Source: a virus
Taxonomy: Duplodnaviria > Caudoviricetes
IMG/VR virus record: IMGVR_UViG_3300037067_006113
Span: 1-64,000 of that record
Strand: one strand, 5' to 3'
Length of the DNA stretch: 64,000 nucleotides
This document shows positions 37,570 to 40,646 of the stretch, one piece after another. A program made the translations under genes and the position numbers. The notes below the pieces were generated by a model. It was not told the origin of the DNA. It did no database searches and worked only from the letters and a program-made list of their open reading frames with translations. Numbering within the stretch: position 1 is the first letter of the stretch; each line of letters opens with the position of its first letter.

Positions 37570-37598
37570 ATTATATACTATGTATGTTTCTTTCTCAA
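37570..37598 (-). promoter_or_regulatory. Sigma70-type promoter of the recA-ssb operon
   Basis: TTGAGA-17-TATAAT. Confidence 0.65.
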
Positions 37599-37946
37599 TC
37601 TAATCCTTTTGGATTTTGTCATTTTTACTAATAATCGTAATCTTCTTTTAGTTTGTTCACTTCTCCTATAATTCTGAAATGTCCTTTCACCTTTCTTAAA
37701 CCTATAGGCGTACCCTAATTCCAGGTTTTTGTATGTACCTTTGTTATACACTGCTTCTTTAAGTTTGGCACGGACAGATTCTCCAATTAAAGGTTCCTTG
37801 AGGTTAATACCCCACTTAATTTTGTATTCTCGTGTAGTTATTTTGTGGTGTCTAGTTATATGACGCGCTAATGCTCTATACCACCTACCGCATTCTTCAC
37901 AGCGGTGTGCGTCAATTATTGGATCGTAATCAGGTTTTCCAAACAT
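37578..37946 (-). CDS. Ros/MucR-family zinc-finger DNA-binding protein
   Basis: CEECGRWYRALARHITRHHKITTREYKIKWGI. Confidence 0.8.
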   Translation of the reverse strand: MFGKPDYDPIIDAHRCEECGRWYRALARHITRHHKITTREYKIKWGINLKEPLIGESVRAKLKEAVYNKGTYKNLELGYAYRFKKGERTFQNYRRSEQTKRRLRLLVKMTKSKRIRLRKKHT

Positions 37947-38006
37947 ATTATTATAATGTTAATTTACTCTATAGAGCACCCTATAGCAAGGTGCTCAAAG
38001 AGTCAA

Positions 38007-38405
38007 TTAAAAACCGCGACTTGTGCCACCTCCAGAGAACATACCTCCTCCAAAACCACCAAATCCTCCTCCAAAACTACTACCACCAAAGATTGGTGTA
38101 GAAGGTACTGAAGGTATTGAAGGTGTATAGTGGAAGAAATCACTATCGTCGTCTTCGTTCTTATCTTCAAACCATTTATCTAATTTATCTCTAAATGTTG
38201 GTTTTTTTGGTACCTCACAATTCAGACAAATTGCCTCCTTAGTTTCTGGATTAGACAATCTAAGTCCTAATCTTTTAAGAGTAACTAAGTCACCAGGTGC
38301 TATTTGATCTGCATCGATATTGACCATTAAATGACCGCAGTCATTACACTTAATGACTTCTACATTCTGTTTTTGTAATTCTATTAAATCTCCTACTTTT
38401 GGCAT
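38007..38405 (-). CDS. Zinc-ribbon protein ending in a TPM/YgcG-type Gly-rich tail
   Basis: CNDC, CLNC; FGGGFGGFGGGMFSGGGTSRGF. Confidence 0.7.
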   Translation of the reverse strand: MPKVGDLIELQKQNVEVIKCNDCGHLMVNIDADQIAPGDLVTLKRLGLRLSNPETKEAICLNCEVPKKPTFRDKLDKWFEDKNEDDDSDFFHYTPSIPSVPSTPIFGGSSFGGGFGGFGGGMFSGGGTSRGF

Positions 38406-38406
38406 G

Positions 38407-38958
38407 TTATTTTTTCACCTCTTTACTAATTGCTTCGACTCCTGATAGAGCTCCACCATTCCAATCATTATTTCTTAAGAATGGAACAACAGATTCGTCA
38501 AGAATTCTTCCAGCTTTAGCGTCATTAATTACTTCTTCAAGACCTCTTCCTACTTCAATTCTGACTTTTCGATCTTCGGTTACAATTAAAAAGATAATTC
38601 CATTATCTTTTCCCTTATATCCAGGCTTCCATTTATCAGCTAATTTAATTGCATATTGTTCTACACTTAGTGGTTGAGTAGTTTTAACAGTTACTACTGC
38701 CACCTGAGCTGTTTGATCAAGTGCTTTTAAATCAGATTCAATCTTTTGTTTAGTTTCTTCCTTTAAAACACCCGACAGGTCAACTACATAACCAGTAGGT
38801 TCGGGCAATACCAATCCTTGTTGCACTTTAGTTTCATATTCATTAAAAGAAGATATAGGTTTTGAATTTCTAATTACTGCCGCTGATATTGCCATTCCGA
38901 ATACTAATACAAAAGCAACTACAATTAATAGTTCAACTAATGAAAATCCTTTTTTCAT
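38407..38958 (-). CDS. TPM (DUF477/YgcG) domain protein with a prepilin-type N-terminus
   Basis: KKG|FSLVELLIVVA; YVVDLSGVL, QVAVVTV, DNGIIFLI, RIEVGRGLE. Confidence 0.88.
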   Translation of the reverse strand: MKKGFSLVELLIVVAFVLVFGMAISAAVIRNSKPISSFNEYETKVQQGLVLPEPTGYVVDLSGVLKEETKQKIESDLKALDQTAQVAVVTVKTTQPLSVEQYAIKLADKWKPGYKGKDNGIIFLIVTEDRKVRIEVGRGLEEVINDAKAGRILDESVVPFLRNNDWNGGALSGVEAISKEVKK

Positions 38959-38959
38959 A

Positions 38960-39550
38960 CTATTTCACCTCCAAATCTACTTTAGGAGCTTGGCTAGCAT
39001 CCTGTGTCTGAACCGTAAATAATGGCTTTTCTAAAAAATTAAATACTATAGCTAAAACATTTTTTGGAAATCTCTTAATATCAATATTGTAATCTCTAGT
39101 AGCTTCATTATATCTTTCACGAGCTACAGTTACTCTATTTTCTGTTCCAGCTAATTCGTCCATTAAACCTTTAACAGTTTGGTCAGCTTTAAGATTTGGA
39201 TAATTTTCCATAATTACCATTAATCTAGATAAAGCACCTTCGAGTTGAGAAGTAGCTTGAACTTTATCTTCCGAACCCATTGGAGCGTTAGCATAGTGAG
39301 TACGAGCGTCAGCAATATCTTTATATACCGCCTGTTCATGTGCCATATATCCTTTAGTGGAATTAGCAAGATTCGGAATTAAGTCATAACGTCTTTGATA
39401 TTGAGTTTCAACCTGAGACCATAAAGTTGATACAGTTTCTCGTTCGGTAACCATTGAATTATAGGAACCAGTTACCCAAGAAAATAACGACATGCCAAAT
39501 ATAACAATAGCAACTAATACAGATAAAATAACTATTTTTGTCTTACTCAT
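38960..39550 (-). CDS. lemA: LemA family protein
   Basis: WSQVETQYQRRYDLIPNL, ENYPNLKA, ELAGTENR..AR..YN, FPKN. Confidence 0.95.
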   Translation of the reverse strand: MSKTKIVILSVLVAIVIFGMSLFSWVTGSYNSMVTERETVSTLWSQVETQYQRRYDLIPNLANSTKGYMAHEQAVYKDIADARTHYANAPMGSEDKVQATSQLEGALSRLMVIMENYPNLKADQTVKGLMDELAGTENRVTVARERYNEATRDYNIDIKRFPKNVLAIVFNFLEKPLFTVQTQDASQAPKVDLEVK

Positions 39551-39568
39551 TCTTATTCACCTCCTCAA

Positions 39569-39943
39569 TTAATAACCTATCGACTTTAATAAATCTATTC
39601 TTTGAATTTGTAAATCCTCGTCTTCTTTATTAACTCGGTCTAATAAAGTTTTGTATACTTCCATATTTTTATTGCTTTTCTCAAATGACGAACGAACAAT
39701 ACGATCCGAGTATTCAATTCTATATGACGTATTTCTATATAATTTTTCGTCGATTGATTTAATTTTTAACCATACAAGGTCGTGGTCACAGTTATTAACT
39801 ATGACTTCTTTTGGAACTTCCTTGGTAATAGTTTCTGTTTTACTTTTTGGGGCAATGATCATTCCTAGTAGGAATGCACAAAATATTACAACTATTGTTC
39901 TAGTCATACTCCATTTTTTATCTTCATTATATATATTATTCAT
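39569..39943 (-). CDS. Membrane-anchored hypothetical protein
   Basis: N-terminal TM; first gene after the promoter at 39964-39992. Confidence 0.6.
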   Translation of the reverse strand: MNNIYNEDKKWSMTRTIVVIFCAFLLGMIIAPKSKTETITKEVPKEVIVNNCDHDLVWLKIKSIDEKLYRNTSYRIEYSDRIVRSSFEKSNKNMEVYKTLLDRVNKEDEDLQIQRIDLLKSIGY

Positions 39944-39963
39944 AATTCTCTATTAACTTGTTA

Positions 39964-39992
39964 ATTATACACTAATTTTCTGTTTTTTGCAA
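39964..39992 (-). promoter_or_regulatory. Promoter of the lemA cassette
   Basis: TTGCAA-17-TATAAT. Confidence 0.65.
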
Positions 39993-40646
39993 TTTGTTTT
40001 TTAACTTATAGCGTCTTATCTTAATAAGAGCATTGCCAATGGCTAGTTTAGTCATACCAAAATGTTCGGACAATTCTTTATAGCTCATTCCTTTCTCTTT
40101 AAGTTCTAATATATTAGTATGTAGATTTAAAGTTTTATAATATAAACCTGGATTGTTATATCTAAATTTCCAATAATGTTTTTGACTGCAAAAAGAATGT
40201 TTACCATTTTTATATTTTCTATACCAATATGTATGAAATGGAGAATATTGTTTATTACAGTAACTACAAGTTAACATTCCTCGTCTTCGACTGGCGGCAG
40301 CTCTTTTTCTACAACGTTCAGAGCAATAAACCCACCTTCCGTTTGCATTATGGTTATATACTTTTTTACCACAAATTTTACATATAAATCTAAGTGCATT
40401 AAGTTTATTCTTTTTCTTTTCAATCATTTTTTTATGTATTTCCTCTTGTCTTCCGCTTGAATGACCTAGAACTTTTCTTACAATTTGTTCGGCTCTTTGT
40501 CTAGAAAAACCATATCTTTCTCCTATTTCCTCAAACCTCATTCCTTCATTAAATAGGTTGAATATTTCTATATCCCTTTTTGATATTATTTTTCTATTTT
40601 TCATATTATCGGCGACCCTTTCTTTTATCACTAGTTTTGATTTCAA
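39972..40646 (-). CDS. HTH (sigma70 region 4-like) plus zinc-finger DNA-binding protein
   Basis: FEEIGERYGFSRQRAEQI; CKIC..YCSERC; CSYC..FCS; C-terminal HTH. Confidence 0.7.
   Translation of the reverse strand: MKSKLVIKERVADNMKNRKIISKRDIEIFNLFNEGMRFEEIGERYGFSRQRAEQIVRKVLGHSSGRQEEIHKKMIEKKKNKLNALRFICKICGKKVYNHNANGRWVYCSERCRKRAAASRRRGMLTCSYCNKQYSPFHTYWYRKYKNGKHSFCSQKHYWKFRYNNPGLYYKTLNLHTNILELKEKGMSYKELSEHFGMTKLAIGNALIKIRRYKLKNKLQKTEN

Follow-up and report, generated by a model that had tools for sequence, protein, structure and literature searches.

A LemA-TPM cassette in phage-like contigs with the YgcG-type glycine-rich tail on a separate protein

Analysis of a complete 115-kb viral contig, which bears portal, UvsX-like and DnaC-like genes, identified a three-gene cassette in which the parts of the cellular LemA-YgcG module are distributed differently among the polypeptides. 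The stretch of that contig analysed here, called the window, spans 64,000 nucleotides. The three genes run on the minus strand in the order LemA, TPM protein and Zn-tail protein. The TPM protein is anchored at its N-terminus and ends with its TPM domain; the glycine-rich tail that closes a canonical YgcG protein is found instead at the end of the third product, the Zn-tail protein. The triad of LemA, short TPM protein and Zn-tail protein occurs in 24 distinct metagenomic loci. We propose, with moderate confidence, that it represents a conserved phage accessory operon that rebuilds the LemA-YgcG (TPM) envelope module in split form.

Genes and domains of the cassette

A first-pass annotation of the window had described a phage module at positions 38007-39992. 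All of its open reading frames were found there, on the minus strand (Table 1), and the viral gene content and completeness of the 115-kb contig agree with its assignment to a phage. The orphan membrane protein encoded ahead of LemA has no family match in Pfam, NCBIfam, PHROGs or PADLOC and no homologue at any of the related loci. The PADLOC models of anti-phage defence match none of the four proteins of the putative operon. Against deposited phages, the region as a whole shows no similarity, the Zn-tail protein yields no tblastn match, and the TPM protein yields distant matches only.

Table 1. Features of the cassette and its flanks, listed in the direction of transcription; coordinates are those of the window.
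Feature	Coordinates	Strand	Remarks
Promoter-like site, TTGCAA-17 nt-TATAAT	39964..39992	-	upstream of first gene of putative operon; 10/12 consensus matches
Orphan single-pass membrane protein, 124 aa	39569..39943	-	first gene of putative operon; outside conserved cassette
LemA	38960..39550	-	N-terminal TM helix and helical LemA domain
TPM protein, 183 aa	38407..38958	-	N-terminal anchor and TPM domain
Prepilin-type leader, M-K-K-G	38947..38958	-	predicted cut after Gly4
Hydrophobic N-terminal helix, residues 5-28 (F+1, E+5)	38875..38946	-	membrane anchor; modelled helix 7-28
Tether, residues 29-52	38803..38874	-	disordered; length varies between relatives
TPM domain, residues 53-183	38410..38802	-	chain ends here; no C-terminal TM, no tail
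Zn-tail protein, 132 aa	38007..38405	-	
Zn-tail N-domain, residues 1-69	38199..38405	-	two CxxC pairs; invariant motifs LMVNID, SNPET
Amphipathic helix and acidic run, residues 70-91	38133..38198	-	modelled helix 71-80
Disordered linker and YgcG-type Gly/Phe tail ending SRGF	38010..38132	-	tail core 38010-38090
Long RNA hairpin without U-tract	37959..38010	-	begins at stop codon of last cassette gene

The LemA protein scores 176.6 bits against PF04011 (cut-off 26.2, E 3.5e-52) in a match running over profile positions 2-148 of 149, and it matches the Thermotoga maritima LemA structure 2etd with E 1.3e-41. Its hydrophobic stretch covers residues 6-27, and a single N-terminal helix is likewise present in each of 17 aligned cassette LemA proteins, an alignment with 34 invariant columns.

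Residues 58-179 of the 183 in the TPM protein match PF04536 at 134.3 bits (cut-off 22.1, E 3e-39), covering profile positions 1-124 of 125. The chain stops four residues past this match, its last element being the helix 166-182 of the domain, which bears out the annotated claim that the protein ends right after its TPM domain. With neither a C-terminal transmembrane segment nor a Gly-rich tail on the same chain, it departs from the canonical YgcG/UPF0603 architecture. The fold is modelled at pLDDT above 95 over residues 53-183, and the conserved TPM motifs are intact in an alignment of relatives. The best structural match is BA41 (5anp; E 3e-12, rmsd 1.7 Å, TM 0.86 by target), and 7tbr, 2kw7, 3ptj, TLP18.3 and Psb32 are matched as well.

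The N-terminus of the TPM protein, MKKG followed after the predicted cut by FSLVE and an unbroken hydrophobic stretch, fits the classical pattern for prepilin cleavage and methylation. G4 (-1) and E9 (+5) are invariant in 25 aligned relatives, and F5 is nearly so. The class III (type IV prepilin) motif noticed in the first pass is thus well formed by sequence, although the prepilin models fall just short of their thresholds (PF07963, 15.9 against 21.2; TIGR02532, 15.4 against 16.3); many close relatives carry a precomputed PF07963 call. Only one ORF in the 115-kb genome has a prepilin-type N-terminus. The model lacks the rest of a pilin, in which a long alpha-1 helix packs against a beta-sheet head; it consists of a 22-residue helix, a tether and the TPM fold, and no pilin appears among its fold matches at E <= 0.001. 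Residues 30-45 of the tether have pLDDT below 50, and the corresponding alignment columns are gappy and unconserved. The leader region also shows a weak match to pilins of Patescibacteria, which we do not count as evidence on the host.

The Zn-tail protein has CxxC pairs at residues 20-23 and 60-63, and no transmembrane or other hydrophobic segment and no signal was found in it, in agreement with the earlier description of a Gly-rich tail detached onto a TM-less next ORF with two CxxC pairs. Its N-domain is modelled at pLDDT about 80 and has invariant residues C20, M27, N29, D31, G38, D39, S51, N52, P53 and T55, and residues 93-131 have pLDDT below 50. Counted from the C-terminus, the tail has Phe at -15, GGG at -14 to -12 and again at -8 to -6, Ala at -5 and Phe or Trp at -1. 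This C-terminus-anchored profile is the same, position by position, as that of canonical TPM-TM-tail proteins, and within the phage genome a Gly/Phe tail of this kind is found in the Zn-tail ORF only. Of 77 members of the Zn-tail family, 68 have an acidic run ahead of the tail, against 5 of 56 among canonical TPM tails.

No Pfam, NCBIfam, PHROG or PADLOC match was found for the Zn-tail protein. Fold searches with its model reached a best Foldseek E value of 0.4 and a best VIA Z of 3.0, FYVE-type entries being weak (Z 2.1-2.6), and an ESM Atlas search with the protein gave chance-level scores. The family comprises about 45-50 clusters or representatives among 1.84 billion proteins, in which no fused forms were found; all members stand alone. 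Since about 10 of 45 representatives lack the cysteines, the fold does not require zinc. Judged by sequence, the Zn-tail proteins make up a new family with few members.

The first pass had also given the cassette its own promoter and a downstream hairpin. A consensus match is indeed present upstream of the operon, but the region holds 15 such matches where shuffled sequence holds 15.9 +/- 3.7; because these sites are no commoner than in shuffles, this one is a candidate only. The hairpin is real and strong, with a stability of -22.6 kcal/mol (z = -6.6) equalled in 0 of 200 shuffles. The scan for intrinsic (Rho-independent) terminators made no call, and no run of T follows the hairpin.

Distribution of the split and canonical forms

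The contigs that hold the 24 triad loci are classed as viral by IMG/VR call and by flanking genes and are not isolates. In about a dozen loci checked the flanks are phage-like, with genes for D5 primase, PolB, RNA ligases, RtcB and SNF2 helicase. The TPM protein is short and tail-less in 22 of the 24, and the spacing between its gene and the Zn-tail gene ranges from -11 to +7 nt in 15; the genes are for the most part translationally coupled. For the scans of viral sequences, a single TPM sequence as query yielded nothing and alignments were used instead; with the whole Zn-tail alignment the glycine pattern drowned out the other matches, and the scan was rerun on the N-domain only.

Cellular genomes present a different picture. 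All TPM proteins at 44 loci of species-representative genomes and in 401 Patescibacteria are canonical long forms. The canonical operon of lemA with a TPM-TM-tail gene is widespread, being found in about 12% of the 401 Patescibacteria genomes sampled and in many other phyla. The Zn-tail domain gave two borderline per-genome matches in the 401 Patescibacteria (E about 4e-4), neither of them in a cassette, and was not found in 401 genomes from the phylum to which the Bacillota MAG locus L003 belongs. The split architecture, which might have proved common in host chromosomes, was not found in those searched. For LemA together with TPM or YgcG, our literature search found no functional study.

Proposed role and alternatives

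In the arrangement we favor, the LemA and TPM domains would lie on the outer face of the cytoplasmic membrane, and the Zn-tail protein would be cytoplasmic, on the side where the tail of a cellular YgcG protein should lie. An N-anchored TPM protein cannot place a C-terminal tail in the cytoplasm, and the tail would consequently be supplied in trans, where it may serve as a docking peptide for a cytoplasmic partner. The class III signal of the TPM protein would probably be cut by the prepilin peptidase of the host, as one of several interchangeable devices for export and anchoring. The cassette is probably expressed with the neighboring replication genes. An action on membrane or envelope homeostasis of the host during infection, the weakest step of the scheme, is suggested by analogy with TPM proteins that are auxiliary subunits of membrane complexes and with the PspA-SamGHI system of Bacillus subtilis. 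The cytoplasmic parts of LemA and of the TPM protein, only 3-5 residues long, weigh against communication between a cytoplasmic Zn-tail protein and these two. Likewise, neither an SPFH protein nor PspA was found encoded in the 115-kb phage, which weighs against a SamGHI-like reading. A three-chain prediction of LemA, TPM protein and Zn-tail protein scored 0.67, and a control in which LemA was replaced scored 0.70; the scores speak neither for binding nor against it.

The Zn-tail protein might act on its own as a soluble decoy or adaptor, competing for or capturing a host reader of LemA-YgcG tails and so tuning a pathway of envelope stress or membrane repair. We rate this as unlikely, although several observations are consistent with it. 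The tail has the form seen in cellular YgcG proteins, tails of the canonical kind are present in candidate hosts, and the Zn-tail family is small and found in phage-like contexts only. At two loci (L052 and L079) the Zn-tail protein stands beside a complete canonical TPM-TM-tail protein, and it is therefore not just the half that a split gene would lack. At two others (L049 and L069) extra mini ORFs, each with a TM segment plus tail, follow the Zn-tail gene. However, no organism is known to possess a reader of the tail, and the coupling to a tail-less TPM protein in 22 of the 24 loci would equally fit a subunit of the phage's own complex. We are similarly doubtful of the view that the Zn-tail protein is a phage invention that frees the YgcG tail from the membrane as a soluble decoy or adaptor for a cytoplasmic host reader, possibly membrane-repair machinery of the SPFH/PspA type. 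If the decoy interpretation were true, the phage could control the envelope-stress response during infection, and a binder of the near-universal LemA-YgcG tail could for the first time be sought with a tractable bait, the Zn-tail protein.

The first-pass annotation had looked to the host type IV pilus. By that account the TPM protein, cleaved by the prepilin peptidase of the host, would enter the machinery of the pilus or a related type IV filament and either decorate the filament or block its assembly, leading to superinfection exclusion or altered attachment. Phages are known to achieve exclusion by disabling type IV pili. The TPM protein has a complete class III signal, in which G(-1) and E(+5) do not vary within the prepilin-type subgroup, and the closest relatives of the TPM protein (64-72% identical) nearly all retain the leader. 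No Peptidase_A24 (prepilin peptidase) gene was found in the phage genome, so that any prepilin processing would fall to the host, and pilins tolerate bulky extra modules, as in PilB of Streptococcus sanguinis (PMC8179133). Set against this, only six of the 24 cassettes have a prepilin leader; the remainder have plain anchors or Sec signals, among them the syntenic sister phage (L050/L071), whose signal is of the Sec type. The wider clade of short TPM proteins also includes members with lipoboxes. On the TPM tree, where the short TPM proteins form a separate clade, at least 9 to 16 switches of leader type are counted, and members with a pilin-type leader have sisters with plain anchors or lipoprotein signals. 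Some lineages retain decayed prepilin motifs in which position -1 is Ser or Ala. The model has no pilin head domain and finds no pilin folds, and entry into a pilus would leave LemA and the Zn-tail protein unexplained. On the grounds of the leader counts, the repeated switches and the missing head, we regard entry into or jamming of the pilus as an improbable function for the cassette. The comparison of relatives shows, at the level of sequence, that a class III signal is interchangeable with Sec, lipoprotein and plain anchors for tethering one and the same ectodomain; the prepilin leader seems to be an exchangeable anchor rather than a means of entering the pilus. Such interchange is a caution against taking every protein with a class III leader to be a pilin.

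An enzymatic role, in which the TPM domain would be a putative extracytoplasmic phosphatase or nucleotidase with LemA and the Zn-tail protein as accessories, strikes us as highly improbable. Phosphatase/nucleotidase activity has been reported for the TPM protein TLP18.3; TLP18.3 and Psb32 also have structural-subunit roles, in photosystem II assembly. The conserved motifs of the domain are intact, and for its closest solved fold, BA41, ATPase/ADPase activity is cited in PMC11237479. Nevertheless, several TPM proteins without metal or nucleotide binding are structural subunits, AscF is a TPM protein in such a role (PMC13456599), and the catalytic residues of the TPM family are not defined.

The first-pass annotation itself raised the possibility of an assembly error. 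That the split reflects such an error, a sequencing error or the recent decay of a canonical TPM-TM-tail gene into a pseudogene can be excluded with near certainty. Nothing was found in favor of this reading: contigs from three studies are identical across the junctions (record 15 of Contig X3, from an independent landfill assembly, spans both gene junctions with 0 differences), the split is shared by 22 diverged loci with TPM identities of 37-57%, and the Zn-tail N-domain has no counterpart in YgcG proteins.

If the cassette is, as we favor, a LemA-YgcG module rebuilt in split form, its repeated retention in phages provides a natural dissection of a widespread operon, with the tail placed on a soluble protein of 130 residues. 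The split form points to a tail that functions as a module of its own on the cytoplasmic side, and the Zn-tail protein is an easy bait for the partner of the tail. LemA-TPM modules also join the accessory genes found beside replication genes in landfill and groundwater phages.

Comparison with known systems

Like type IV and modular pilins, the TPM protein has a short leader of basic character, the residues Gly (-1), Phe (+1) and Glu (+5), and a hydrophobic helix. It differs from them in that it has no pilin module, scores below threshold against the pilin HMMs and has a leader that is exchanged among its relatives. Superinfection exclusion through a block of type IV pili is known for the phage proteins Tip of D3112, Aqs1 of DMS3 and PfsE of Pf. 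Their targets are PilB or PilC, reached from the cytoplasm or the membrane, and they are not known to resemble pilins. The cassette shares with them the character of small phage accessory proteins and a possible link to the pilus, but is not known to resemble them in sequence or architecture.

The cassette shares with the canonical lemA-ygcG operon its two families (PF04011 and PF04536) and the tail motif; the order of the two genes is usually the same, and translational coupling is frequent. The canonical YgcG protein is built as signal, TPM domain, TM segment and Gly-rich tail, whereas the phage TPM protein is N-anchored and ends after its domain. The canonical tail is part of the TPM chain, and the phage tail belongs to a TM-less protein with a putative Zn-binding N-domain and an acidic linker. 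Unlike canonical lemA-ygcG, the triad has been seen in phage-like contigs only.

In the PspA-SamGHI (YdjGHI) membrane-stress system, SamH has an outer TPM domain, SamG has a cytoplasmic Zn finger, and SamI combines an SPFH domain, a stretch of low complexity and a Zn finger; the outer TPM protein and the cytoplasmic Zn-finger proteins recruit the SPFH protein and PspA (PMC8581546, PMC13713150, PMC11237479). What recalls the phage loci is that a membrane protein with its TPM domain outside the cell works together with an SPFH protein and with cytoplasmic proteins that carry zinc fingers and low-complexity stretches. A gene for a flotillin-like SPFH protein lies one or two genes past the Zn-tail gene in loci L066, L068 and L091, which must be counted as one observation because they have an SNF2 helicase in common and probably represent a single lineage. 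SamGHI has no LemA, and the phage has neither PspA nor an SPFH protein. SamG is integral to the membrane and combines an NTF2-like domain with a pair of zinc ribbons, whereas the phage Zn-tail protein has no TM segment. Judged by the arrangement of these parts, the resemblance is an analogy of layout, not membership in the PspA-SamGHI system.

Gene organization of the cassette

The putative operon comprises four co-directional genes downstream of a promoter-like site, encoding an orphan membrane protein, LemA, a short TPM protein and a Zn-tail protein, the last joining a CxxC-bearing N-terminal domain to a YgcG-type Gly/Phe tail without a transmembrane (TM) segment. Gaps of 1 nt separate LemA from TPM and TPM from the Zn-tail gene. 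The first-pass annotation had described LemA, a TPM protein with a prepilin-type leader, and a detached tail on the next ORF, and this layout is confirmed. It had also proposed a separate promoter, for which a promoter-like consensus match is present and nothing beyond that match, and a downstream hairpin, which is indeed strong (-22.6 kcal/mol, z -6.6) and runs from the last stop codon. The 124-aa orphan protein has no family match in the libraries searched and no homologue in the related loci. The phage LemA matches phrog_1383 (E 2e-20), which PHROGs labels 'virion structural protein'.

Features of the cassette, its flanks and selected related loci (L numbers)
Feature	Position	Strand	Size	Remarks
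Small regulator	39972-40646	-	224 aa	sigma-70 region 4 / Mor-like HTH motifs; Cys-rich zinc-finger-like stretches
Orphan single-pass membrane protein	39569-39943	-	124 aa	first gene of putative operon
LemA	38960-39550	-		PF04011, E 3.5e-52; PDB 2etd, E 1.3e-41
TPM protein	38407-38958	-	183 aa	PF04536, E 3e-39, residues 58-179
Zn-tail protein	38007-38405	-	132 aa	two CxxC pairs, amphipathic helix, acidic run, disordered Gly/Phe tail
Hairpin, extended	37959-38010	-	52 nt	starts at Zn-tail gene stop codon; no U-tract
Ros/MucR-type zinc-finger protein	37578-37946	-		one also after cassette of sister phage L050/L071
Mini ORFs	L049:6889-7128; L069:1378-1593		71-79 aa	after Zn-tail gene; TM helix, acidic/Gly linker and YgcG tail only
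Flotillin-like SPFH proteins	L068:6807-8090; L066:6441-7736; L091:4970-6259		427-431 aa	one or two genes after Zn-tail gene
Cys-less Zn-tail protein	L047:6821-7252			longer N-terminus

The parent IMG/VR virus record is 115,271 bp long and rated complete by CheckV. The window is its first 64 kb, in which all genes lie on the minus strand and GC is about 31%. Its portal, UvsX-like, DnaC-like and DnaD-like genes identify the virus as a tailed phage; it has eight tRNA genes. The cassette sits within a replication and recombination block, and two small regulators flank it. The stretch is present in metagenome runs of landfill and groundwater samples, drawn from several studies.

The split arrangement and the Zn-tail family

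The separation of TPM domain and tail is not an assembly error: Logan contigs from three studies cover the cassette junctions with 0 differences, one of them (contig X3 record 15) not being a possible source of the window, and the same split occurs in 22 diverged loci. Scans of viral and metagenome collections, using TPM and Zn-tail alignments, yielded 24 distinct loci with a Zn-tail gene. In 22 of these a short tail-less TPM gene lies directly upstream, preceded in most by LemA, contig reach permitting, and in 15 of the 24 the TPM to Zn-tail spacing is between -11 and +7 nt. Two loci (L052, L079) carry a canonical TPM-TM-tail protein together with a Zn-tail gene. The flanks examined, those of about a dozen loci, are phage-like, with D5 primase-helicase, PolB, RNA ligases, RtcB, SNF2 helicase, methylase and Cpn60. 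Synteny with the present phage is seen in a single contig, L050/L071; the cassette therefore moves among phages of unrelated background. An SNF2 helicase is encoded upstream in all three loci with flotillin-like SPFH proteins; these proteins have an N-terminal TM segment and an extended stretch rich in Ala and Glu.

Nor is the architecture common in host chromosomes, as far as these were sampled. At 44 TPM loci of species-representative genomes, lemA-adjacent TPM proteins are nearly all long, ending in a TM segment and tail, and a Zn-tail gene follows none of them. Among 401 sampled Patescibacteria genomes, about 12% have the canonical lemA and TPM-TM-tail operon, a TPM with a prepilin leader is absent throughout, and the Zn-tail domain gives two marginal matches only; it was not found in 401 genomes from the phylum of the Bacillota MAG locus L003. 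These negatives rest on samples and are valid for the genomes searched. Patescibacteria canonical tails (L101-L130) end in GGGGASGSW, and one such locus, L126, contains a tandem pair of TPM genes. As a form of the LemA-YgcG module, the cassette is new and associated with phages.

When aligned from the C-terminus, the tail of the Zn-tail protein shows the same residue profile as the tails of 56 canonical TPM-TM-tail proteins, with F at -15, GGG both at -14 to -12 and at -8 to -6, A at -5, and either F or W at -1. The structural model (pLDDT about 80) places the first Cys pair in a knuckle that follows a strand and the second where a helix begins, which resembles a treble-clef finger more closely than a classical ribbon. 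An exhaustive profile search of 1.84 billion proteins found 50 representatives of the N-terminal domain, none fused to TPM. Some 45 of them stand alone, with lengths of 70-180 aa; of these, about 35 have the tail and about 10 lack cysteines. The Zn-tail protein is a new small protein family. Genes of a Cys-less subgroup (L047, L084, L085, L088), whose products are extended at the N-terminus, lie 190-280 nt after TPM and are not coupled to it; in L047 a 90-aa ORF occupies the gap.

The leader of the TPM protein

The TPM protein begins M-K-K-G|F-S-L-V-E and continues into a hydrophobic helix, in keeping with the classical prepilin cleavage and methylation pattern, and is the sole ORF in the phage genome with such a leader. 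Curated prepilin HMMs score it slightly below threshold; G(-1) and E(+5) do not vary among 25 relatives. Its AlphaFold model has a helix at 7-28, a disordered tether (pLDDT <50 at 30-45) and a TPM fold (pLDDT >95) that best matches BA41 (5anp, rmsd 1.7 A); the significant matches include no pilin.

The leader had suggested that the cassette enters or jams the host pilus. That function is not borne out, since only 6 of the 24 cassettes have a prepilin-type leader, the others having plain signal-anchors or Sec signals, and it is swapped repeatedly for other anchors on the tree. Lipoboxes are present in the wider short-TPM clade. In a tree of 160 TPM domains, short forms group away from most canonical long forms, and leader type changes 16 times, versus 28 with shuffled labels; at least 9 of the 16 changes are forced by well-supported branches. 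Prepilin-type TPMs have plain-anchor or lipoprotein forms as sisters (for example P0005/P0011 and P0050/P0072), some lineages keep the helix with Ser or Ala at -1, and in the syntenic sister phage the signal is of Sec type. By sequence comparison, the prepilin leader is an interchangeable anchor; because it is swapped among relatives, the conserved trait would be the tethering of a TPM domain at the membrane's outer face rather than entry into the pilus. In the subgroup to which the present phage belongs, the motif is well kept and the phage genome has no prepilin peptidase gene, so cleavage by a host peptidase is likely. A pilus-related role, limited to this subgroup, is at best a side possibility.

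Predicted topology and likeness to membrane systems

Signals and composition suggest that the LemA and TPM domains would face outward and that the Zn-tail protein would remain in the cytoplasm, the side on which the cellular YgcG tail would lie after its TM segment. An N-anchored TPM protein cannot bring a C-terminal tail into the cytoplasm, which would explain a tail on a separate protein.

Most TPM proteins characterized to date, among them Psb32, TLP18.3 and SamH, serve as auxiliary subunits in membrane complexes. AscF, another TPM protein, is a subunit of a mycobacterial supercomplex (PMC13456599). The cytosolic SPFH protein SamI of B. subtilis is recruited by SamH, an outer TPM protein, together with SamG, a membrane protein of the zinc-finger type (PMC8581546, PMC13713150, PMC11237479). 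From the auxiliary role of TPM proteins, this layout and the SPFH genes near the cassette, it may by analogy be a module for envelope or membrane homeostasis carried by the phage, in which the tail would serve as a docking peptide. It is unlikely that the soluble tail acts instead as a decoy or adaptor for a host reader of YgcG tails. The cassette differs from SamGHI in that the present phage has neither SPFH nor PspA, and any such partner would therefore be the host's; it resembles SamGHI in the flotillin-like SPFH gene found near the Zn-tail gene in three related phage loci.
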